Below are positions 23,083 to 51,924 of a stretch of 64,000 nt of DNA, piece after piece. The notes under the pieces were generated by a model. That model was not told where the DNA came from. It saw only the letters and a program-made list of their open reading frames with translations, and searched no databases. A program made the position numbers and the translations under genes. Origin of the DNA: a virus (lineage: Duplodnaviria; Heunggongvirae; Uroviricota; Caudoviricetes); the IMG/VR virus record IMGVR_UViG_2721755711_000002; one strand, written 5' to 3'. Every line of letters starts with the position of its first letter. Within the stretch, counting starts at the first letter, position 1.

Positions 23083-25125
23083 TTAACGATTATTTGTGCC
23101 GTTTTTCTTTAAATTGCGCTCACGGTCAGACACGAATAAATAAAGTTCTTCTTTTTCCTTTTTCTCCTGGCGTTCCAGTCCATATCCCAGATTAAACTCA
23201 GGTTTCTGCGTAATAGCCGGGGTAAGTTCGCGTTTAGCCTCTTCGATTTTCTGCGTGGCCCGTGCAATGCGGCCTCGGGCGCGTTTCTCCTGCTGCTGTT
23301 CGATAACGGCTTTCGGGAACGCATCGACCTTGTTACCGTTCCAGATGGCATCGCAGATATAAGAACCGTCCATTCGCCTGACAATCACGCTGTTTGCGTC
23401 GTGAATGTCGTAACAAACCCTGACTTCATTTCCGTGCTCTGCTGCCAGTTCTGTGGAGAAATAGATGTTTCTGAATAACACCACTTCACCGCGTCGCACC
23501 GTGCAGATGCTTTCCGGTCGGAACATTTCATGCAGTTCTTCCGGCGACAGCATGTCGATTTCAGCCTTTTGCTCTTTTATCAGTTTCCGGCGATACGCTG
23601 CCGGGCTGTAATGTTCGCCATCCTCTTTGCGGGGAAGGCTGCTGTGTGGTCGGTTGTTATACCGTTTCACCTCCAGCTCTATTGCGGCCAGCAGTTGCTC
23701 AAAGGTGGGGACTTCTCCCATCGCTTTAACCTGCCGTTTTGTCAGCTCTTTCCCTTTGTGGGTGGCCTTAATGGCTGACTGTGTGATGCGTTGCTGCATC
23801 ATCACCGTTTCCTTGTCTGCATTTTTTGAGCAGTACGTCTGGAAACTCAGGGCCACATCTTTGGGTATTCCTTTGTTTGCCCGTTCTATTACCCCGCGCC
23901 CCTGCGGGTTACCAGGTATCCCCGTGTGATGCTCCACACCCAGTCGGGGCAGAATCCCGGTAATATCGGCATCAAGCACCCGGTTTTTTTCACCGCCCCC
24001 GTTATCGGAGTAATAAATCAGCGGTATTCCGTGTTGTGACATGCCATGACGCAATGCATCAGCAACGGCTATCACGTTCTCCGACAGGGACAGCGACCAG
24101 CCCACAATAAAGCGTTGCCCCGCATCCATAACCAGCGTCACTTCTGGCCGGAATGTATTCCCGGTGGCGGGGCTGAATGCCATCAGTTTCATACAGTGAC
24201 CATCCCCGACCCATACCGCATTAACCGGTAATGTGCTCCAGTCGCGCCGCACAAAGGGATTGAGCGAACGCCAGGCTGAACCGGTGGAGCGGAAACGCTC
24301 CTTCACAATCACCGGGACGTTGCTTAACACCCGTCTTACTGCGTGAACTGAAGGCAGTGCTGCCAGCATTCCTGCGTCATTCGCGTGCTTTTCATGCCAC
24401 CAGGCTGAAAACTCGCGATACGCATATTCAACGGTCGGGCGCTTCCATGAGCGATAGAACATAAAGAAATCGCTCAACCACCAGACCTGCTCCCACGGTG
24501 TTCCCTTATGATGACCGGGAGCCAGTAACGCCAGTAACTGATTGGCATCACCGCGCGCCATCAACCAGGCGGAATACCATTCCTGCAAACTTCCCCAACT
24601 GACGCCAGTTCGCTTACCCTGTCTGGCGTTTGCAGTGCCTGCGGCCTCAATAATGCGGTCAGGTAACGCCCCCATGCGCACACCATCAATGATGTGTTTT
24701 ACTGCTGCCGTCCTGGACATTCCTGCGTATTCACGCAGTTTATGCACTTCGGTAGCCAGCAATATCCGCGCATCAGCGATGGCCTTTTGCTTGTCGGTCA
24801 GTGCCTGAACTTCGCGTAATGCCAGTTCCGGGCATTTGACCATCACTTCCAGTTCATCGCGAACGGTGACGTTTTTAACTGCCTTCTGCTCAACCACGGC
24901 GGGCAGTTGCGCATCTTCCAGAACCTGATGAGTCAGGCGCTTACGTAAAACTTTCTGCGCTTCAGTGGGCAGGCAGTCGATGTGATACTCGAATGCTTTG
25001 GTGCCTTCACGCTTGCGCTTCCATTCCGGGTGCGTCTCTGTGATCCGATTGAGCGTCCAGCGCACCCCCTGAACTGTACCGGGCAAACCAGGAAGACCGG
25101 CCAGCTCATTGGCTGAATAAAACAT
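23083..25125 (-). CDS. Mu-type DDE transposase (MuA-like)
   Basis: 680 aa ORF between ner-like and B-like genes; size and organisation as Mu A. Confidence 0.8.
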   Translation of the reverse strand: MFYSANELAGLPGLPGTVQGVRWTLNRITETHPEWKRKREGTKAFEYHIDCLPTEAQKVLRKRLTHQVLEDAQLPAVVEQKAVKNVTVRDELEVMVKCPELALREVQALTDKQKAIADARILLATEVHKLREYAGMSRTAAVKHIIDGVRMGALPDRIIEAAGTANARQGKRTGVSWGSLQEWYSAWLMARGDANQLLALLAPGHHKGTPWEQVWWLSDFFMFYRSWKRPTVEYAYREFSAWWHEKHANDAGMLAALPSVHAVRRVLSNVPVIVKERFRSTGSAWRSLNPFVRRDWSTLPVNAVWVGDGHCMKLMAFSPATGNTFRPEVTLVMDAGQRFIVGWSLSLSENVIAVADALRHGMSQHGIPLIYYSDNGGGEKNRVLDADITGILPRLGVEHHTGIPGNPQGRGVIERANKGIPKDVALSFQTYCSKNADKETVMMQQRITQSAIKATHKGKELTKRQVKAMGEVPTFEQLLAAIELEVKRYNNRPHSSLPRKEDGEHYSPAAYRRKLIKEQKAEIDMLSPEELHEMFRPESICTVRRGEVVLFRNIYFSTELAAEHGNEVRVCYDIHDANSVIVRRMDGSYICDAIWNGNKVDAFPKAVIEQQQEKRARGRIARATQKIEEAKRELTPAITQKPEFNLGYGLERQEKKEKEELYLFVSDRERNLKKNGTNNR

Positions 25126-26479: not shown

Positions 26480-26755
26480 TTGATCACTACCCCACAGGTA
26501 ACAGAAGACGGTCGTCATGTTGAGGAAGTGCATGTCCTGGGGGATATGTACCGCCTGGAGTTCTATCCGCGTAACACTCATCTTGCAGCGAAGATTGAGT
26601 ATTGCCGGGACGGGAATATTCCGTGCATTCCTGTAGAAAAAGAGGATGAAGCCTACATCATCACACTGAACGGTGACACGGCGCGTTGTATCTGTCGTGG
26701 CGACAGTGAAGCCCGGAATGAAATAGCAAGATGTCGCGCCCATACAGATAAATAA
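26480..26755 (+). CDS. hypothetical ORF, possibly a 3' gene fragment truncated by the Mu-like insertion
   Basis: ORF begins only with a TTG call immediately outside the Mu-like end, without a convincing SD; followed by a strong terminator. Confidence 0.25.
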   Translation: MITTPQVTEDGRHVEEVHVLGDMYRLEFYPRNTHLAAKIEYCRDGNIPCIPVEKEDEAYIITLNGDTARCICRGDSEARNEIARCRAHTDK

Positions 26756-31638: not shown

Positions 31639-33206
31639 ATGTGGAGTTGATAGATGTTCACGGACAGCCCCTGCGACAGAGTATGGGATATTCCGGTGGC
31701 GGCTCCGGATTTGGTGGGCAGCTTGCGGAATGGTTACCTGCACCAGAAAGTGCCGACGTGGCGCTCTTACCTTCCATTCATCTGGGTAACGCCCGCGCGG
31801 ATGATCTGGTCCGTAATAATGGCATTGCCGCGAATGCTGTGGAAATTCATAAAGACCATATCGTCGGGCATATGTTTCGTCTGAGTTATCGCCCCAACTG
31901 GCGCTGGCTGGGGATGTCGGAAGCAGATTCACATGCTTTTATTGAAGATGTTGAGGCGGCGTGGATGGAATACTGCGATCCGGTGTTTGGTACGATGGAT
32001 GTGGAAGGGCGTCGTTCGTTTACCGAATTCATTCGTGAAGGGGTGGGTGTCCATACTTTTAATGGAGAAATTTTTGTCCAGCCTGTATGGGATGCGGAAT
32101 CCACGTCATTATTCCGGACGAAATTCAAAACCATCAGCCCGAAGCGTGTCAGTACACCCGGTTATGGTACCGGCGATCGTTTTATGCGTGCCGGGGTGGA
32201 AATAAACCGACACGGAAAAGCGCTGGCCTACCATGTTCAGGATGATGACTGGCCCGGCTACGGTGTCAGTAAATGGACACGAATTACGGCAACACTGCCT
32301 TCCGGACGACCGGGAATGATCCATGTGTTTCAGCCACAGGAAGACGGGCAGACCCGCGGGGCCAACCAGTTTTATTCTGTAATGGAGCGTCTCAAGATGC
32401 TCGACACACTGCAGGCCACGCAACTGCAGTCGGCGGTGGTTCGCGCCATGTATGCCGCCACGATTGAATCCACACTGGATTCGGAAAAAGCGTTTGAATA
32501 TATCGCCGGGGTGGGAGATGGAGGTAAAAATCCCCTGAACACCATCATGAAAGGCTACGCGCGTTATTACGCCACCAATACGGTAAAACTGGGCGGGGTC
32601 CGTATTCCGCATCTTTACCCGGGAGATTCACTGAATCTGCAGACAGCCCAGAATGCGGATAATGGTTTTTCTGAACTGGAAAAGGCGCTGTTACGTTACA
32701 TTGCTGCCGGACTGGGTGTGTCGTATGAGCAGCTTTCCCGGGATTATTCACAGGTCAGTTATTCCAGTGCCAGGGCATCCGCCAATGAGTCGTGGCGGTA
32801 TTTTATGGGAAAACGAAAATTTGTGGCCAGTCGCCTGGCGTCACAGATGTTTGCCTGCTGGCTGGAGGAAGCCCTTATTCGTGGTGTGATCCGTCCGCCG
32901 AAATCCCGTTTCTCATTCTGGGAGGCTCGTTCCGGGTGGTGCCGTGCCGAGTGGATTGGTGCCGGTCGTATGGCGATTGATGGCCTTAAGGAAGTGCAGG
33001 AAGCGGTGATGCGCATTGAAGGCGGCCTGAGTACATACGAGAAAGAGCTGGCCCTGATGGGGGATGACTATCAGGAGATTTTCCGCCAGCAGCTACGGGA
33101 AACTCAGGAGCGACAGGCTGCCGGTCTTCCGCGTCCGGTCTGGATAAAGGACGCGTTTCAACAGCAGATCCGACAGACAACGGGAGAAAAAGGCGATGCG
33201 CTGTAA
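31635..33206 (+). CDS. B: portal protein (lambda gpB-like)
   Basis: 523 aa ORF following W-like gene, overlapping start/stop; lambda head gene order. Confidence 0.8.
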   Translation: MNVELIDVHGQPLRQSMGYSGGGSGFGGQLAEWLPAPESADVALLPSIHLGNARADDLVRNNGIAANAVEIHKDHIVGHMFRLSYRPNWRWLGMSEADSHAFIEDVEAAWMEYCDPVFGTMDVEGRRSFTEFIREGVGVHTFNGEIFVQPVWDAESTSLFRTKFKTISPKRVSTPGYGTGDRFMRAGVEINRHGKALAYHVQDDDWPGYGVSKWTRITATLPSGRPGMIHVFQPQEDGQTRGANQFYSVMERLKMLDTLQATQLQSAVVRAMYAATIESTLDSEKAFEYIAGVGDGGKNPLNTIMKGYARYYATNTVKLGGVRIPHLYPGDSLNLQTAQNADNGFSELEKALLRYIAAGLGVSYEQLSRDYSQVSYSSARASANESWRYFMGKRKFVASRLASQMFACWLEEALIRGVIRPPKSRFSFWEARSGWCRAEWIGAGRMAIDGLKEVQEAVMRIEGGLSTYEKELALMGDDYQEIFRQQLRETQERQAAGLPRPVWIKDAFQQQIRQTTGEKGDAL

Positions 33207-34812
33207 TTTATCACATATTGCCGCGATGGCATTTAATGAGCCGCTTTTACTGGAACCCGCCTATGCGCGGGTTTTCTTTTGCGCACTGGGTAAGGAAATT
33301 GGGGCGGGCAGCCTTGCCGTTCCGCAGCAGGCCGTTCAGCTTGATGCCGATGGTATGCAGCTGGCGGTTACCGATTATATGACTGGTGGTCCGCGTCCGG
33401 TAAAGAGTTACCAGGTGAAAAATGGTATTGCCATTCTGCCGGTGAGCGGCACGCTGGTACATAAAATGGGCACCCTGCGGCCATATTCCGGTATGACCGG
33501 TTATGACGGTCTGACTGCCCGTCTTAAGTCAGCGGTGAACGACCCGGATGTACGCGGCATTTTACTGGATATCGACAGTCCGGGCGGTCAGGCTGCCGGG
33601 GCGTTTGACTGTGCTGACATGATTTACCGTCTGCGGGAACAGAAGCCCGTGTGGGCGCTGTGTAATGACATGGCCTGTTCAGCCGCCATGTTGCTGGCGG
33701 CGGCCTGTACGCGTCGGCTGGTCACGCAGACGGCAAAAATTGGTTCGATTGGTGTGATGATGGCGCACACCAGTTACGAGAAACAACTGGCACAGGAAGG
33801 CGTGGATATCACGCTGATTTACTCCGGGCAGCACAAGGTTGACGGCAACAGTATTCAGGCGTTGCCGACAGGTGTGCGTGCGGATTTTCAGCGCCGTATT
33901 GATGAGGCCCGCCGGATGTTTGTCGACAAGGTGGCACTTTATACGGGGCTGAGTTCAGCGGTGGTGATGAATACCGAGGCTGCCGTTTATGACGGTCAGG
34001 CAGGCATTGATACAGGCCTGGCTGATCAACTGATTAATGCTGCAGATGCCGTTGATGTAATGGTTTCTGCTCTGAACGACTCTGTTACACAGGAGAATAC
34101 GATGACAACAAAAAATCTCACCGTTGCTGAAGCGGTGTCCCAGGAAAATCAGCGCGTGATGGGGATCCTGAATTGTCAGGAGGCGAAAGGACGCGAAAAA
34201 CTGGCGCAGATGCTGGCAGGTCAGCAGGGAATGTCAGTTGAGCAGGCAAAAACATTACTGGCGGCAGCACCGGTTGCCGGTACTGACAGCACAGGCGATC
34301 AGATTGTGGCACTTCCGGAAGCAAAAGGACGTGAACAACTGGCACGGACGCTGGCTGAACAGCCGGGAATGACGGTGGAGCAGGCGAAAACGTTACTGGC
34401 AGCGGCACCGATTGCCGGTGCGGCAAGTACCGGCGAGCAGATTATGGCACTTCCGGAAGCAAAAGGGCGTGAACAACTCGCACAGGCGCTGGCTGAACAG
34501 CCGGGAATGACTGTGGAACAGGCGAAAATGCTACTGGCAGCGGCACCGGCAACCGGTACGGCAAGTACCGGCGATCAAATTATTGCGTTGCCGGAAGCAA
34601 AAGGACGCGAAAAACTGGCACAGGCGCTGGCCGAACAGCCGGGAATGACAGTGGAGCAGGCGAAAACACTGCTGGCAGCTGCGCCATCAGTATCGCAACC
34701 GTCACAGGTAACACTTTTTGAGCGCTTCATGGCACAGCATGCCGCCAGTGCCGTTTCCGGTGGCGGAACTGCCGGGAACGGGGAAGAAGAACTGCTGATG
34801 AGTATGCCGTAA
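33196..34812 (+). CDS. C: prohead protease / scaffold (lambda gpC/Nu3-like, S49 family) with expanded C-terminal repeats
   Basis: 538 aa; N-terminal half in the ClpP/S49 position; C-terminal half has four tandem 46 aa repeats. Confidence 0.75.
   Translation: MRCNLSHIAAMAFNEPLLLEPAYARVFFCALGKEIGAGSLAVPQQAVQLDADGMQLAVTDYMTGGPRPVKSYQVKNGIAILPVSGTLVHKMGTLRPYSGMTGYDGLTARLKSAVNDPDVRGILLDIDSPGGQAAGAFDCADMIYRLREQKPVWALCNDMACSAAMLLAAACTRRLVTQTAKIGSIGVMMAHTSYEKQLAQEGVDITLIYSGQHKVDGNSIQALPTGVRADFQRRIDEARRMFVDKVALYTGLSSAVVMNTEAAVYDGQAGIDTGLADQLINAADAVDVMVSALNDSVTQENTMTTKNLTVAEAVSQENQRVMGILNCQEAKGREKLAQMLAGQQGMSVEQAKTLLAAAPVAGTDSTGDQIVALPEAKGREQLARTLAEQPGMTVEQAKTLLAAAPIAGAASTGEQIMALPEAKGREQLAQALAEQPGMTVEQAKMLLAAAPATGTASTGDQIIALPEAKGREKLAQALAEQPGMTVEQAKTLLAAAPSVSQPSQVTLFERFMAQHAASAVSGGGTAGNGEEELLMSMP
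34176..34727 (+). repeat. four tandem in-frame 138 bp repeats inside the protease/scaffold gene
   Basis: Repeat unit EAKGRE.LA..LA.Q.GM.VEQAK.LLAAAP.AG..STG.QI.ALP; anchors at about 34183, 34320, 34458, 34596. Confidence 0.75.
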
Positions 34813-46815: not shown

Positions 46816-47306
46816 TGATGGTGGATTTTGTTGGCTTTGGCGCAAACATGATTGAGCGCAAGGCATGGGACAGGATTGGTTCATTAACCGATGTGGCCTC
46901 GCGGGTCATGCTGTCGTTTGGTGAGTTTGAGTTCAGTATTGATTCAGCGGCGTATAACGCCATGAAGCGCACCATGGAATGGCGATGGGATGAGCAGCAG
47001 TTAATCGGAAAAAAGGATCTGCTGCAGTATACCGGTAAGGGGGCCAGAACGATAAGCCTTGAAGGGATGGTTCATGCGGGATTTCGTGACGGTGTGGGGA
47101 TGGATGCCCTTGATACGCTGGTTCAGATGGTGGATAAAAATCCTGCGCCGCATCTGCTGGTTTCCGGGACGGGGGATGTGATGGGGTATTTTGTTGTAAC
47201 CGCCTATTCAGATAACACCACGTCCTTTCTTCCCGGCGGTGCGCCGAAAAACAAAACGTTCACACTGGAGCTGAAATACTATGGCGAAAAACTGGCGGAC
47301 CACTGA
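46815..47306 (+). CDS. U: tail protein (P2 gpU-like)
   Basis: ORF after tape measure with overlapping stop/start (TGATG). Confidence 0.65.
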   Translation: MMVDFVGFGANMIERKAWDRIGSLTDVASRVMLSFGEFEFSIDSAAYNAMKRTMEWRWDEQQLIGKKDLLQYTGKGARTISLEGMVHAGFRDGVGMDALDTLVQMVDKNPAPHLLVSGTGDVMGYFVVTAYSDNTTSFLPGGAPKNKTFTLELKYYGEKLADH

Positions 47307-47499
47307 CGGCGATATGCTGGATGATATCTGTCAGAGACACTACGGCAGCGCCGGACTCAACCAGTCACTGGCGGCGGTACTGGAGGCTAATCCCGGGCTG
47401 GCTGATCTTGGTCCGGTGTATCCGTCCGGGGTGGAAATCGTGTTACCGGACTGGACATATGAGCCGGAAGAGAAGGAGACGTTTCAGTTATGGGACTGA
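47281..47499 (+). CDS. X: tail protein X (P2 gpX-like)
   Basis: 72 aa ORF between U-like and D-like genes, overlapping both. Confidence 0.6.
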   Translation: MAKNWRTTDGDMLDDICQRHYGSAGLNQSLAAVLEANPGLADLGPVYPSGVEIVLPDWTYEPEEKETFQLWD

Positions 47500-48566
47500 A
47501 TGAATATCAGCCGGATTTCAGTCTGACGGTGGAAGGCGAGGATATCACGAAAGCAATAAAACGCGGACTGGCTGAACTGCGTTATACCGATAATGGTGCT
47601 GCCACAAAGCGGGCTGATGAGTTAATGATAACGCTGTTCAGTGAAACGCTGGCATTGCCACCGAAAGGCGCAGTATTAACGCTGGGGCTGGGGTTTAACG
47701 GACGTCTGGTGAATAAGGGTAGCTTTACTGTCTGTCAGGTGGCAAGCGGTGGCCCTCCCCGCCGGATCACCATTTATGCCACAGCAGCCCCCATGAATGC
47801 GTCCAGGCATGGTGCAGATGTGACTGCACTGAAAACCCGCGCCTTCAGCGATGTCACGCTGGGTGACCTGGTAAAAACGATCGCCACTGAAAATAATCTG
47901 GTGGCGCGGGTATCTCCGGCACTGGAGAAAATTCGTATTCCGTGGGTGATGCAGTCATCTGAGTCGGATGCGTCCCTGCTTTCCCGGCTTGCAGGGATGT
48001 ACGGTGCCACCAGTAAACCGATGAACGGTTACTGGTTATTTCTGGAGTATGGTGCGTCGCAGAGTACCGGAGGCAGGGATGCCCCTGTGATGACCATCAC
48101 ACCGGATATGGTGTCAGACTGGGATTACCGGGAGGGCGATCGGCAGGGGGCATCCGGAGGCGGAAAAGGGGGAAAGGTTGGTGTCAGGTACTTTACTCCG
48201 TCTGATGGTCGCACGCGTGAACTTAAAGTGGATGTGGAGTCCACAGACAAGCGGCATCCCTTCACCCAGCCAGACCAGAGCACGGCAGAACATTGTGCAC
48301 AGTCGAAGGTAAAGCGGGTGCAGAAAGCGGGGCGTCAGATGACGATAACGCTGCCCTGCCGACCGGTATTGCTGAAAGCGGGGGCGGAAGTGCGCTTTAT
48401 CACACGGGGCTTCGGGGTACGGGAGGACCATAACTGGCAGGCAGAGTCAGTGGAATTTTCGTTGTCACCGGTGCAGGGATTTTCGCTGAATCTGTCGCTG
48501 GCCACGGATATTTCTGCAAAGGGGAAAGCCAGTGGCAAGAAAAAAGGCGTCAATTATTTTGGTTAA
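47490..48566 (+). CDS. D: late control / tail protein (P2 gpD-like)
   Basis: 358 aa ORF closing the P2-like tail cluster. Confidence 0.7.
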   Translation: MGLNEYQPDFSLTVEGEDITKAIKRGLAELRYTDNGAATKRADELMITLFSETLALPPKGAVLTLGLGFNGRLVNKGSFTVCQVASGGPPRRITIYATAAPMNASRHGADVTALKTRAFSDVTLGDLVKTIATENNLVARVSPALEKIRIPWVMQSSESDASLLSRLAGMYGATSKPMNGYWLFLEYGASQSTGGRDAPVMTITPDMVSDWDYREGDRQGASGGGKGGKVGVRYFTPSDGRTRELKVDVESTDKRHPFTQPDQSTAEHCAQSKVKRVQKAGRQMTITLPCRPVLLKAGAEVRFITRGFGVREDHNWQAESVEFSLSPVQGFSLNLSLATDISAKGKASGKKKGVNYFG

Positions 48567-48590
48567 TGTTTTCTGAATCAGGAAATAAAA

Positions 48591-49226
48591 ATGTCTGTAT
48601 TAATTTCGGGTGTGCTGACGGATGGCGCGGGACTCCCCATGTCCGGATACCATATTATTCTGAAAGCCAGACAGAATACATCCGCAGTGGTCATGAGAAC
48701 GGTGGCTACAGTGATGACAGGTCCGGCAGGAGAATATGCTTTTGAAGCTCAGACCGGAAAATATGACGTTTATCTTCGGTCGTGTATTGAAAGGGAATAC
48801 TGTGTCGGTGATATTTCGGTTTACGACGACTCAAAGCCCGGCACGCTGAACGACTTTTTGACCGCTCTCGACGAAGGCGACCTCAAACCCGACGTGGTGA
48901 AACGCTTTGAGGAAATGGTGGCGCAGGCGCAGCAGGGTGCCGAAACTGCAACAGAAAGCGAACGACAGGCAGGGCAACATGCAGACGCTGCCGCCCGGGC
49001 AAAAGAAGATGTAAAAAAACTGGTGGAAGGTGTTCAGCAGAACGCCGACGCGGTTGCGGAGGGTAAACAACAGGCCGAAACTCTGGTCTCACAGGTTGAG
49101 GATACCGCCGCAGAGGTCAGGCAGGATGCTGAAGCCGCGAAAAAGGCCGCATCTGATGCAGAGCATGTCAGGGAGGATATTGACACTGCGTTATCTGCGA
49201 CACTGAAAACGGCGAATCGCCTGTAA
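48591..49226 (+). CDS. side tail fibre N-terminal domain protein (Stf N-terminal fragment)
   Basis: 211 aa; ...ISGVLTDGAGLPMSGYHIILKAR...GKYDVYL...VYDDSKPGTLNDFLTA...PDVVKRFEEMV... parallels remembered lambda Stf N-terminus; stop codon lies in the junction core. Confidence 0.6.
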   Translation: MSVLISGVLTDGAGLPMSGYHIILKARQNTSAVVMRTVATVMTGPAGEYAFEAQTGKYDVYLRSCIEREYCVGDISVYDDSKPGTLNDFLTALDEGDLKPDVVKRFEEMVAQAQQGAETATESERQAGQHADAAARAKEDVKKLVEGVQQNADAVAEGKQQAETLVSQVEDTAAEVRQDAEAAKKAASDAEHVREDIDTALSATLKTANRL

Positions 49227-49271
49227 ACGATTCGCCGTTTTCAGTGTCGCAGATAACGCAGTATCAATATC
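49176..49271. repeat. near-palindromic junction: 44 bp inverted arms (35 bp perfect, then one mismatch) around an asymmetric 8 bp core CCTGTAAA
   Basis: 49188..49219 is the exact reverse complement of 49228..49259; arms continue as roughly 630 bp diverged inverted homologs (the two Stf N-terminal genes). Confidence 0.9.
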
Positions 49272-49856
49272 TGCTCTGGCCTGCTCTGCACCGGATGCGG
49301 CCTTTTTCGCGGCTTCAGCATCCTGCCTGACCTCCGCGGCGGTATCCTCAACCCGTGAGGCCAGATTTTCGGCCTGTTGTTTACCCTCCGCAACCGCGTC
49401 GGCGTTCTGCTGAACACCTTCCGCCAGTTTTTTTACCTCTTCTTTTGCCCGGGCGGCAGCGTCTGCATGTTGCCCTGCCTGTCGTTCACTTTCTGTTGCA
49501 GTTTCCGCGCTCTGCTGCGCCTGCGCCACCATTTCCTCAAAACGTTTCACCACGTCGGGCTTGAGGTCGCCTTCATCGGGGGCGGTCAGAAAATCATTCA
49601 GTGTGCCGGGCTTTGAGTCGTCGTATACAGCAATATCTCCAACACAGTACTCGTCGCGCCAGCCCTGCTTCAGATATACGCAGTATTTTCCGGTCTGCGC
49701 CTCAAAACAGTACTCGCCACAGTTTCCTGTCACCACGTCGGCAACTGTGCGCATCACCACCTCTGAGGTGTTTACCCGGGATTTCAGAATTATGTGGCAT
49801 CCGGACATGGGGATGCCTGCGCCATCAATCAGCGCACCTGATATCACTACAGACAT
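49191..49856 (-). CDS. side tail fibre N-terminal domain protein (second, diverged Stf N-terminal fragment)
   Basis: 221 aa, similar along its whole length to 48591..49226 (roughly 85 to 90 percent by eye); reads through the junction core and ends 10 codons into the opposite arm. Confidence 0.6.
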   Translation of the reverse strand: MSVVISGALIDGAGIPMSGCHIILKSRVNTSEVVMRTVADVVTGNCGEYCFEAQTGKYCVYLKQGWRDEYCVGDIAVYDDSKPGTLNDFLTAPDEGDLKPDVVKRFEEMVAQAQQSAETATESERQAGQHADAAARAKEEVKKLAEGVQQNADAVAEGKQQAENLASRVEDTAAEVRQDAEAAKKAASGAEQARADIDTALSATLKTANRLQAIRRFQCRR

Positions 49857-49879
49857 AGTTTTTCTCGCGATAAATTAAA

Positions 49880-50428
49880 TCAGGAAGAGGCTTCCGGAGA
49901 GACGGGCCATTCAATGGCGTTATATGAGGCTTTATCAGTGATGGTGCTGAAATCCATCGCCTGCAGCGATTTCGCGTAAATGCGGTACGCTTTCAGCTTT
50001 TCCCTGTCTTCGTCGCTGATTAATCCCAGCAGCAGGTCTTTTTCCCATTCGCTGGTCATGATACTGACCTGTTTTAACAGGGCATCACGCTCGTCTTCCG
50101 CTTTAAGTTTGTAGTCGAAAACAAATTCATCATTGCGGTAAAACCAGTAGCCTGATGCTTCAATGCGACGATTAGCGGTAATATCCGGCAACTCAATCAC
50201 GCTTTTATTTTCCGGGCAGATTGAGGTGATGTCTTTTCCGACCCAGACCACTTCGCCAGTTTTAACATAAATAACTTTCAGGGTGTCTGGTAGAAATTTT
50301 TCCTGGGCTTCGTGCCATTCCTGTCCATCATCTGAGAACAGCCACAATAAAAATTTATGCTGTCGCGCCAGCTGGTATTGCTCAATTGTTTTAGGGTTTT
50401 GTACCGTAATATTTTTTAAGTGCATCAT
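49880..50428 (-). CDS. tail fibre assembly chaperone (Tfa-like)
   Basis: 182 aa; C-terminus ...SYNAIEWPVSP; directly downstream of fibre gene. Confidence 0.8.
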   Translation of the reverse strand: MMHLKNITVQNPKTIEQYQLARQHKFLLWLFSDDGQEWHEAQEKFLPDTLKVIYVKTGEVVWVGKDITSICPENKSVIELPDITANRRIEASGYWFYRNDEFVFDYKLKAEDERDALLKQVSIMTSEWEKDLLLGLISDEDREKLKAYRIYAKSLQAMDFSTITDKASYNAIEWPVSPEASS

Positions 50429-50430
50429 GA

Positions 50431-51924
50431 TTACAAACTCGCTACATTTCTCCAGACGCCATTAATCAGAACCTGCACCGGGCGTGCATTGGCCCAGTTC
50501 ACACTTTCACCGCCATCAACACCACTCAGTAAATGACCTGATGGCGCATTTCCCCCGCGTCCAATACCAATGGCGCTTCCCAGACGTACATCCTGCACGC
50601 CGCCTGTTTTGGTCTGATAGCGGGCATCAAAGTTTCCGTAGTTTGATGGAGTTATCTGCCCATTTACAGCGAATGTGACGCTATCGTCTGTATTTCTCTG
50701 ACTGTAGAAATGCCAGCCGGAATCATCACCAAGTTCTGCAACTACAGGTCTGGATGGATTACCCCATAAATTAAACCCTACGTTCTTCGTGGAGCTGTTG
50801 GAGCTGGATAGCGTGAATTTTTTACTATCCCCGGCCTGAACGTTTTTAAAAGCAATAGCAACTCCATTCTGAAAGCGAAATACGCGCTGATTATTAGCAT
50901 AAACATCCAGAATGCCATCGCCGTTTTGTTTTATACCGGTGTCGTTATCTCCGAGAGTAATGGAATTACCGCCCAGTGCGTTATCCGTACCAAGCGCCAG
51001 CCCACCATCAATTTTGGCCCCGTGGCTGACAGATATAGCACCTGTTCTCAGATTTATAGCAAATGGCCTTAATGGGCCAATATCGCCATTCTCGCCCTGA
51101 CCTTCACTGGTAGGGATAAGGTGCAGGCACTCTTCCGAACGACGAAAAATCAGGCCAAAAGCGTCGTTGAAAATCCTCAGCGCATTAACACCACGGATTT
51201 TCAGCTCCCCGGTCATCAAATCACCAGATTTTTTTACATATCGCAGATCAAAATCTGAATAGATATTGCCGGGGTTTATCACGCTGAAATAGCTTTTCTC
51301 GTTATCAAGAAGGCAAATCAAAGGAATACCTTTAATGATATCATTCGCTACCAGCTCGGACTTGTTCCCCTTATAAAGTGGGAACGTACCAAGAACCTTT
51401 CCGCCTAGTGTTAGTTGAAGTGTCGCCGCGTTGGTATTGTTCTGAACGGGGAAAACGATAATCGGGGTTCGTAGTGTCCAATCTGTACCTTCATTAACAA
51501 AAAACGTCGAGGGAAGCTCCAGCGTCAGTGTGTTTGCAGTGCCACCAGCAACACCCGCAATATAATGACCGCTCTGAAGCTGCGCTATCTGTACGAAATA
51601 GTTTTCCGAACCACGCGTGGCAAAGTTAGCCACAACGTCATTAAGGGACCAACCTTTCGCGGTTGTTCCTTCCTGCCCACGAATGACTTTCAGCACATCG
51701 CCGCTTACTGATACCAGGTGACAAATCTCAAATGCAGACTCTTTATTATCGGTAAGCGTAATTTTTGCATAGACGCGTTGCCCGTTCGATTTATTTTCAA
51801 AATCGGCAGAAAGCAATTTTGCAAATTTAGCTCCCGTGCCCGGCATCACCGGAATATCAGTCTGAATCGTCGTGATATCGCCAGCCAGTGCTGAAACAAC
51901 GTTATTGCCAAATCCAAGAATCAT
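50431..51924 (-). CDS. tail fibre protein
   Basis: 497 aa; C-terminal roughly 200 aa nearly identical to the H-like fibre at 40865..42091; start overlaps upstream stop (ATGA). Confidence 0.8.
   Translation of the reverse strand: MILGFGNNVVSALAGDITTIQTDIPVMPGTGAKFAKLLSADFENKSNGQRVYAKITLTDNKESAFEICHLVSVSGDVLKVIRGQEGTTAKGWSLNDVVANFATRGSENYFVQIAQLQSGHYIAGVAGGTANTLTLELPSTFFVNEGTDWTLRTPIIVFPVQNNTNAATLQLTLGGKVLGTFPLYKGNKSELVANDIIKGIPLICLLDNEKSYFSVINPGNIYSDFDLRYVKKSGDLMTGELKIRGVNALRIFNDAFGLIFRRSEECLHLIPTSEGQGENGDIGPLRPFAINLRTGAISVSHGAKIDGGLALGTDNALGGNSITLGDNDTGIKQNGDGILDVYANNQRVFRFQNGVAIAFKNVQAGDSKKFTLSSSNSSTKNVGFNLWGNPSRPVVAELGDDSGWHFYSQRNTDDSVTFAVNGQITPSNYGNFDARYQTKTGGVQDVRLGSAIGIGRGGNAPSGHLLSGVDGGESVNWANARPVQVLINGVWRNVASL

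Follow-up and report, generated by a model that had tools for sequence, protein, structure and literature searches.

Based on our analysis of a 64,000-nt stretch of DNA (the window), we propose that the head-on meeting of two truncated side-tail-fibre (stf) genes between positions 49223 and 49224 probably represents an assembly join at a tail-fibre repeat that is notorious for such breaks, most likely made by software rather than by the cell. The inverted-repeat structure at the junction is real and far beyond chance. Under either leading reading, an assembly misjoin or a deletion scar, the palindrome is without designed function, and the two genes, here called A and B, are dead N-terminal remnants that have neither a receptor-binding half nor a chaperone gene. 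These two readings, which the initial annotation had named as alternatives (a deletion scar or an assembly chimera), are the ones that the evidence favours.

The window consists of E. coli-type DNA with three prophage pieces. A Mu-like prophage (1-26496, minus strand), whose transposase gene occupies 23083-25125 and whose end reads ...CCCCACA, sits inside a phiP27-like prophage, prophage A. This second prophage combines a lambda-type head with a P2-type tail and runs on the plus strand up to the junction. From the junction to 64000, the minus strand carries the tail module of a different prophage, prophage B; in E. coli F2_407_2_2 the corresponding element is a complete lambdoid phage at the Rac locus, carrying recE/recT, kilR and xisR. 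Compared with its closest relatives, prophage B shows SNPs only and no indels, an observation that says nothing on the assembly type. The Mu-type transposase is the only recombinase identified in the window, where tblastn searches with Gin and two phage integrases gave no hit.

Prophage A, the phiP27-like one, ends with gene A (48591..49226, plus strand), which has 211 codons, against 474 in intact relatives. Gene B (49191..49856, minus strand) is likewise the terminal gene of its prophage, the Rac-locus prophage B, and encodes 221 aa, made up of 211 native codons and 10 read-through codons. The description of these ORFs as two diverged, convergent Stf N-terminal genes is borne out: both the 211-aa and the 221-aa products contain Pfam PF08400 (phage_tail_N, the Stf N-terminal domain) over residues 1-133 of the 134-position profile (E = 1e-56 and 3e-62), followed in both by an Ala-rich coiled-coil stretch. 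Since each frame reads into the opposite arm of the junction, the junction creates the TAA stop of gene A and gives gene B a 10-residue tail, QAIRRFQCRR, which is the reverse complement of A. The C-terminal receptor-binding half and the DUF4376 chaperone gene are missing after both genes, each native part ending at codon 211 of 474. The sequences directly upstream of the two genes form unique flanks. Gene A is preceded by a gpD-like tail gene of prophage A (47490..48566, plus strand), which has a weak PF05954 match and whose relatives are annotated as late control protein or as members of the VgrG/Pvc8 family. Gene B is preceded by the tail-fibre assembly gene (tfa) of prophage B (49880..50428, minus strand; PF02413). 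The exact tfa protein occurs in 162 blocks of public assemblies, and an intact 474-aa stf gene follows tfa in all ten of the other loci examined.

At the junction, two perfect arms of 35 bp face each other across 8 nt. The initial annotation had placed the meeting of the genes at 49176..49271; the head-on perfect arms stand, while that range is slightly too wide, the arms lying at 49185-49219 and 49228-49262. The left arm (plus strand) is a conserved coding stretch, ...TALSATLKTANR, common to all alleles examined, and the right arm (minus strand) is gene B's copy of that conserved coding stretch. To the 8-nt "core" between them, CCTGTAAA at 49220..49227, A contributes its final 4 nt (C CTG) and B its own final 4 nt (T TTA) in reverse complement. 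The core is indeed asymmetric and, as had been noted, holds the stop codon of the plus-strand gene, TAA at 49224-49226. T49224, which can be assigned to either parent, is the sole ambiguous nucleotide at the junction, and filler sequence is absent. A repeat search extended the arms to 425 nt each (48795-49219 and 49228-49652, with 8 nt between), 92% complementary; this 92%-identical inverted repeat, spanning 48795..49652, encodes the Ala-rich coiled-coil linker of both genes. When genes A and B were aligned as a whole and without gaps outward from the centre, they gave 633-nt arms (211 codons) of 83.6% identity with no indels, and the longest exact run common to both arms was 56 nt. Gene A is most distinctive at 48624-48823, where its identity to B is only 56-78%. 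For the 200 nt around the centre, the predicted hairpin has an energy of -111.5 kcal/mol (z = -24 against shuffled sequences). With a perfect stem of 35 bp, a loop of 8 nt and a stable predicted hairpin, the junction has the structure of a long palindrome. A search of 47000-51500 against the Rfam families gave no match, and there was no promoter or terminator signal of note at the junction centre.

Comparison with intact relatives shows what has been joined. In every relative examined, the stf gene has 474 codons, is followed by the DUF4376 gene and lies at the extreme end of the prophage. An intact A-type stf gene (474 aa) with its DUF4376 gene is present in PapRG-04-4, an intact B-type gene in F2_407_2_2 and ten further assemblies, and an intact A-type copy together with a Mu-like copy in STEC316. 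From 49221 rightwards, gene B is 99.86% identical to F2_407_2_2, in which the gene goes on to 474 aa and is then followed by the DUF4376 gene. Gene A is 98.1% identical to the IMG/VR contig L023 up to 49224, where L023 runs on from ...CCTG into TCAGAGCTGG. The native A-type alleles that share the upstream sequence of the window (IMG/VR L023, L026 and L029) read ...ACGGCGAATCGCCTG and then TCAGAGCTGGCTGATGAAGG..., and the native B allele reads ...ACGGCGAATCGTTTA and then TCAGAGCTGGCTGATGAAGG..., while the window reads ...AATCGCCTG and then TAAACGATT... From this alignment of the native alleles, the window follows A as far as Leu211 and there passes directly into B, read in reverse complement from its own Leu211. 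Both genes are thus cut after exactly 211 codons, at the identical Leu/Ser boundary, and each has lost 263 codons and the DUF4376 gene relative to intact relatives. Aligning the arms with full-length stf genes, as had been suggested, gives a clear answer: homology to the 474-codon gene stops after codon 211 in both. The asymmetry of the core arises because the Arg-Leu codons at this place differ synonymously between the two genes (CGC CTG in A, CGT TTA in B).

The position of the break coincides with the boundary of a repeat. We compared the native cassettes of the A type (PapRG-04-4) and the B type (F2_407_2_2) in bins of 100 nt. Before nt 633 their identity was 76, 61, 82, 92, 97 and 78%; over the roughly 1.4 kb from there to where the DUF4376 gene ends, it was mostly 94-100%, with one bin at 83%. 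This jump exactly at nt 633 means that the break is the repeat boundary. The last differences between A and B before the common stretch are CCTG versus TTTA (three substitutions), and past the break no difference separates the best parent proxies, L023 for A and L001 for B, for at least 50 nt. The complete genome of PapRG-04-4 carries the cassette twice, once in an A-type and once in a B-type prophage, in direct orientation and 144 kb apart, so that the presence of two copies is a real genomic configuration. Other assemblies also stop at or near this point. In an S. sonnei draft contig (DBBRFW010000287.1) the sequence finishes precisely with the homologous Leu codon, an E. coli contig of 187 kb (LCVH01000230.1) ends 3 nt before the break point, and three IMG/VR contigs end 127, 132 and 176 nt past it. 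Almost all of the best 120 homologous protein clusters are annotated as partial, and among these 120, several of the 34 clusters that carry the motif end -1, 0, 10, 18, 22 or 38-47 residues after the Leu. In dozens of S. sonnei assemblies, the contig ends are scattered over residues 141-169 around the equivalent residue 162. The junction is not a functional element: it lies at the first base of the cassette, and from there on both stf genes lack all that follows codon 211.

The junction itself was found nowhere else in the collections searched. A 200-nt query gave no junction-spanning match in 5,426 complete E. coli genomes and none in the records of a phage collection. The exact 24-mer across the junction was absent from species-representative genomes and viral contigs, and a looser gapped hairpin pattern matched nine sequences in metagenomes and species-representative genomes, all of them unrelated hairpins. 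Neither of the truncated proteins A and B is present in an index of 153 billion genes, and exact look-ups of the gpD-like protein, the tape-measure-like protein and the tail fibre likewise found no record. A synthetic junction of the two C-terminal halves, which would be the reciprocal product, had no match in the 5,426 genomes.

We suggest a plausible mechanism for the formation of this junction outside the cell. The near-identical cassette, comprising the C-terminal half of stf and the DUF4376 gene, would have been collapsed as a repeat in the source assembly. Two unique contigs, ending in the N-terminal halves of A and B, would then both have stopped at the cassette boundary, and their ends may have been abutted without a gap during scaffolding, pseudomolecule building or concatenation. 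It is towards this abutting of two contig ends at a collapsed repeat that we lean, with some reserve. Several observations argue for it. The break lies at the boundary of a near-identical repeat and independent draft assemblies break there; both genes are truncated at the same codon, with no filler and only 1 ambiguous nt; and the junction was found in no other record. Two paralogues broken at equivalent positions must have had those positions paired in some way, physical or logical, and a logical pairing, by contigs that stop at a collapsed repeat, is simpler than a physical one. The break also obeys the logic of exact matching: it sits at a cluster of three substitutions that is flanked by 35 further identical bases, and a cellular process based on hybridisation would barely register such a cluster.

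The misjoin reading has difficulties of its own. The parental sequences contain no k-mer across the junction, so that it cannot arise inside a de Bruijn-graph assembler, and a separate abutting step is needed. Contigs from de Bruijn graphs normally retain k-1 repeat bases at each end, and such bases are absent here; contig ends with zero overlap would fit Newbler, CLC or a concatenated pseudomolecule. The SKESA-type S. sonnei contig ends scatter about 20 codons to either side, so two contigs that end exactly at the boundary would require an assembler with deterministic repeat boundaries. Moreover, the sequence near the junction is of high quality, and prophage B differs from its relatives by SNPs alone.

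A junction made in the cell has to be weighed against this proposal; that it is a real scar of either kind, from a deletion or from an inversion, we regard as rather unlikely. The deletion, whose own likelihood we put slightly lower, would start from two prophages lying tail to tail, so that their near-identical cassettes form a long inverted repeat, and this repeat would be removed together with its spacer back to the first heterology. Processing of a hairpin or cruciform, or symmetrical end resection followed by end joining, is a conceivable route, which would leave behind an imperfect palindrome of 1.27 kb, with both stf genes dead. In such a stem the inverted copies would pair at homologous positions, and a cut across it would give breaks at the same position in both; the 8-nt loop that is kept corresponds to mismatched bases closed by the 35-bp perfect stem. 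Interrupted palindromes are tolerated in recombination-proficient E. coli and perfect ones are lethal (PMC4245961), and this lethality would select for loss of the perfect repeat. The otherwise accurate sequence is also in keeping with a deletion. On the other hand, the deletion requires that A, from the ompW/trp locus, and B, from the Rac locus, be adjacent and convergent, and PapRG-04-4, the one complete genome in which both copies are placed, has them as the direct repeats described above. As a structural signal the "bubble" in the stem would be weak, with only a G-T wobble besides two C-A mismatches; for replication to slip across the base of the hairpin, direct repeats are required, of which there is 1 nt here; and the product is still a strong predicted hairpin with an 8-nt loop and so probably remains a substrate of SbcCD (PMC4245961). 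The lack of the junction from every other genome in the collections searched counts against a deletion as well. That we are looking at a wild E. coli chromosome in which two prophages were fused end to end by precise removal of an inverted repeat is, on balance, a shade more doubtful still.

The other kind of scar is a reciprocal illegitimate inversion between directly oriented cassettes, with a matching junction of the C-terminal halves elsewhere in the genome. The usual direct orientation of A and B would yield the order seen here, A forward and then B reversed. Nevertheless, we consider an inversion very improbable: two independent illegitimate breaks at one nucleotide are not to be expected, and at the reciprocal junction some 2.8 kb would form a near-perfect palindrome lacking a spacer, a structure that kills SbcCD-proficient E. 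coli, in which a perfect palindrome of 460 bp is already lethal (PMC4245961). As reported above, the 5,426 genomes hold no junction of C-terminal halves. Homologous recombination does not account for the junction either, because it turns inverted copies into chimeric intact genes and direct copies into deletions rather than inversions; the initial annotation was right that a homologous inversion would not yield this product. It was right, too, that the junction is no trivial foldback. A sequencing chimera folded back on itself, or an inverted duplication of one locus, would explain the palindromic geometry and the very small loop, but the arms differ at 16% of positions, and the flanks come from two different prophages with unrelated tail modules, the phiP27-like prophage with its P2-type tail on the left and the Rac-locus lambdoid tail module on the right. 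Since the flanks differ in this way, a simple foldback of one sequence is excluded; a foldback chimera of one molecule was rejected on these same two grounds, and we give the whole class of explanations a negligible chance. Snap-back priming at a native hairpin just past the break (TCAG-AGCTGG-CTGA) was considered and rejected as well, since that hairpin should remain in the product and is absent.

The arms and asymmetric core had also been likened to a site-specific recombination site, and here the comparison fails. The junction could in principle be a hybrid of two left half-sites, made by a Gin/Pin-type invertase or by a tyrosine recombinase, or a site still in use. Its layout of perfect arms around a short asymmetric spacer is site-like, tail-fibre genes are classic targets of invertases, as in the Mu G segment and the e14 P segment (PMC12529663), and 9 nt of the junction, CCTGTAAAC, match part of Mu gix. 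However, this match is built from two different parents and so did not exist before the join, and it is at the wrong position in the gene. The arms are plain homologous coding sequence, the core owes its asymmetry to the synonymous codon difference, and dyad symmetry appears only in the joined product, not in the parents' native sequence, ...GGCGAATCG(CCTG/TTTA)TCAGAGCTGGCTG. Mu gix (TTATCCAAAACCTCGGTTTACAGGAA, read from NC_000929) lies at residues ...IQNLGLQE of Mu S, and the equivalent NLGL motif of these stf genes (NLGLK) falls within the missing part, 16 codons past the break. Known tail-fibre switches, the e14 P segment (PMC12529663) among them, bring alternative C-terminal halves to one N-terminal half and do not join two N-terminal halves; here the N-terminal halves converge with 8 nt between the arms, and a Din-family invertible segment with alternative C-terminal parts is absent. 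A Din-type core (AAACC-NN-GGTTT) was not found near the junction, the only two matches with one mismatch in the window, at 23194 and 41383, being at chance level. A serine invertase or tyrosine recombinase had been thought worth seeking in the flanking genome, and within the window neither has a homologue: tblastn of Mu Gin against the whole window gave a best E-value of 0.67, two phage integrases found no homologue within the window, and a RusA search was likewise negative. Neither parent has the symmetry of a tyrosine-recombinase core site, in which short inverted binding arms enclose an overlap of 6-8 bp. A recombination site was thus rejected after comparison with Mu gix and e14 pix (PMC12529663), Din cores, Gin and integrases, all of which were negative. 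We regard the site-specific recombination reading as already largely refuted, its remaining probability being slighter even than that of an inversion.

What the junction means depends on which of the two leading readings holds. If it is an artefact, then conserved stf linkers combined with common cassettes constitute a systematic point of breakage and misjoining in E. coli and Shigella assemblies, and palindromic "sites" at such points should not count as biology. If it is real, it would document how a bacterial chromosome disposes of a long inverted repeat formed by two convergent prophages, a natural case of palindrome trimming; the resulting 1.27-kb imperfect palindrome with its 8-nt centre would be a standing SbcCD-sensitive fragile site, and neither of the fused prophages would have a side tail fibre any longer or, probably, be able to excise cleanly. 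Even then, it would not be a new recombination system.

Among known systems, the junction recalls the collapsed-repeat breaks and misjoins in the prophage tail-fibre genes of E. coli and Shigella drafts. There, as here, the break is at the start of a multi-copy, near-identical cassette, and database homologues of the N-terminal half carry the annotation "partial" nearly without exception. Unlike such contig breaks, the two ends are here joined without Ns and without a k-1 overlap of repeat bases. The invertible segments Mu G with Gin and gix, e14 P with Pin and P1 C with Cin share with the junction convergent parts of tail-fibre genes and inverted repeats inside coding sequence, and the conserved linker of Mu S that holds gix, with its NLGL motif, is also found in this stf family (PMC12529663). 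These systems have a constant N-terminal half, two C-terminal alternatives, 26-bp sites and an adjacent invertase gene, whereas the junction has two N-terminal halves and, in the window, no invertible segment, site or invertase. The homologous inversions between prophages of E. coli O157:H7 (PMC8743559) are likewise rearrangements between homologous prophage modules on one chromosome, but such exchange yields intact chimeric genes; two genes that meet head-on, each without its distal half, cannot result from it. Finally, the engineered chromosomal palindromes that are cleaved by SbcCD (PMC4245961, PMC3315005) resemble the junction in their long inverted arms, very short spacer and strong hairpin, which here is a predicted one. 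The engineered palindromes, with lengths of 246-480 bp, are either perfect or interrupted by a spacer of 20 bp; the junction, in contrast, is made of natural-looking coding DNA, 2 x 633 nt with 84% identity and perfect over 35 bp on each side.

The stf C-terminal/DUF4376 allele that would be expected downstream of the break, where the truncated stf genes of prophages A and B meet head-on, is rare, being carried by 4 of 5,426 complete E. coli genomes. One of the four, PapRG-04-4, which harbors the closest relative of prophage A, has this allele in two different prophages. This distribution suggests that the cassette has been exchanged recently between unrelated prophages.

Prophage B, a lambdoid phage of the Rac type, has an unusual tail module, with an SLT-domain protein, baseplate J and a 497-aa fibre. 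In the related loci that carry it (L013-L022 and L036), the intact stf and DUF4376 cassette forms the prophage terminus every time. The prophage adjoins at least three distinct chromosomal contexts: uspF/ompN, a Rac integrase and the yebV-rsmF region.

The main tail fibres of prophages A and B are homologous in their C-terminal parts, which appear in the window as a second inverted repeat between the two prophages (41495-41893 versus 50590-50988; 399 nt, 88% identity). The stretch at 49905-51216, covering the tail-fibre assembly gene (tfa) and fibre end of prophage B, also matches PapRG-04-4, where the fibre/tfa region of its A-type prophage shows 96% identity.

In PapRG-04-4 (L032), prophage A's closest relative has a satellite-like insert between its head and tail genes (L032 18814-29372), encoding an integrase, a RepA helicase, a small terminase and its own capsid and decoration genes; this element is absent from the window. 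In prophage A, a unit of 138 nt (46 aa) occurs four times in tandem at 34176-34727, within the S49 peptidase/scaffold ORF (33196-34812). The copy number differs among strains, as the PapRG-04-4 homologue is shorter by exactly 138 nt. The Mu-like prophage ends at 26496/26497 (...CCAGAATTGATCACTACCCCACA), within prophage A and directly downstream of the latter's lysis genes; here a transposable phage has inserted into another prophage. In the STEC316 genome, a related Mu-like element adjoins the same type of prophage in the opposite orientation.

No invertase gene was found in the window. The P2-H-type tail-fibre gene of prophage A (40859-42091) contains a sequence, CTGTTGAAAACCTCGGATTAAAACCT (41374-41399), and homology to the PapRG-04-4 prophage stops at 41462, about 70 nt past it. 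CTGTTGAAAACCTCGGATTAAAACCT looks like a Din-invertase crossover site when compared with Mu gix, TTATCCAAAACCTCGGTTTACAGGAA, and may be a relic of such a site at a constant/variable boundary.
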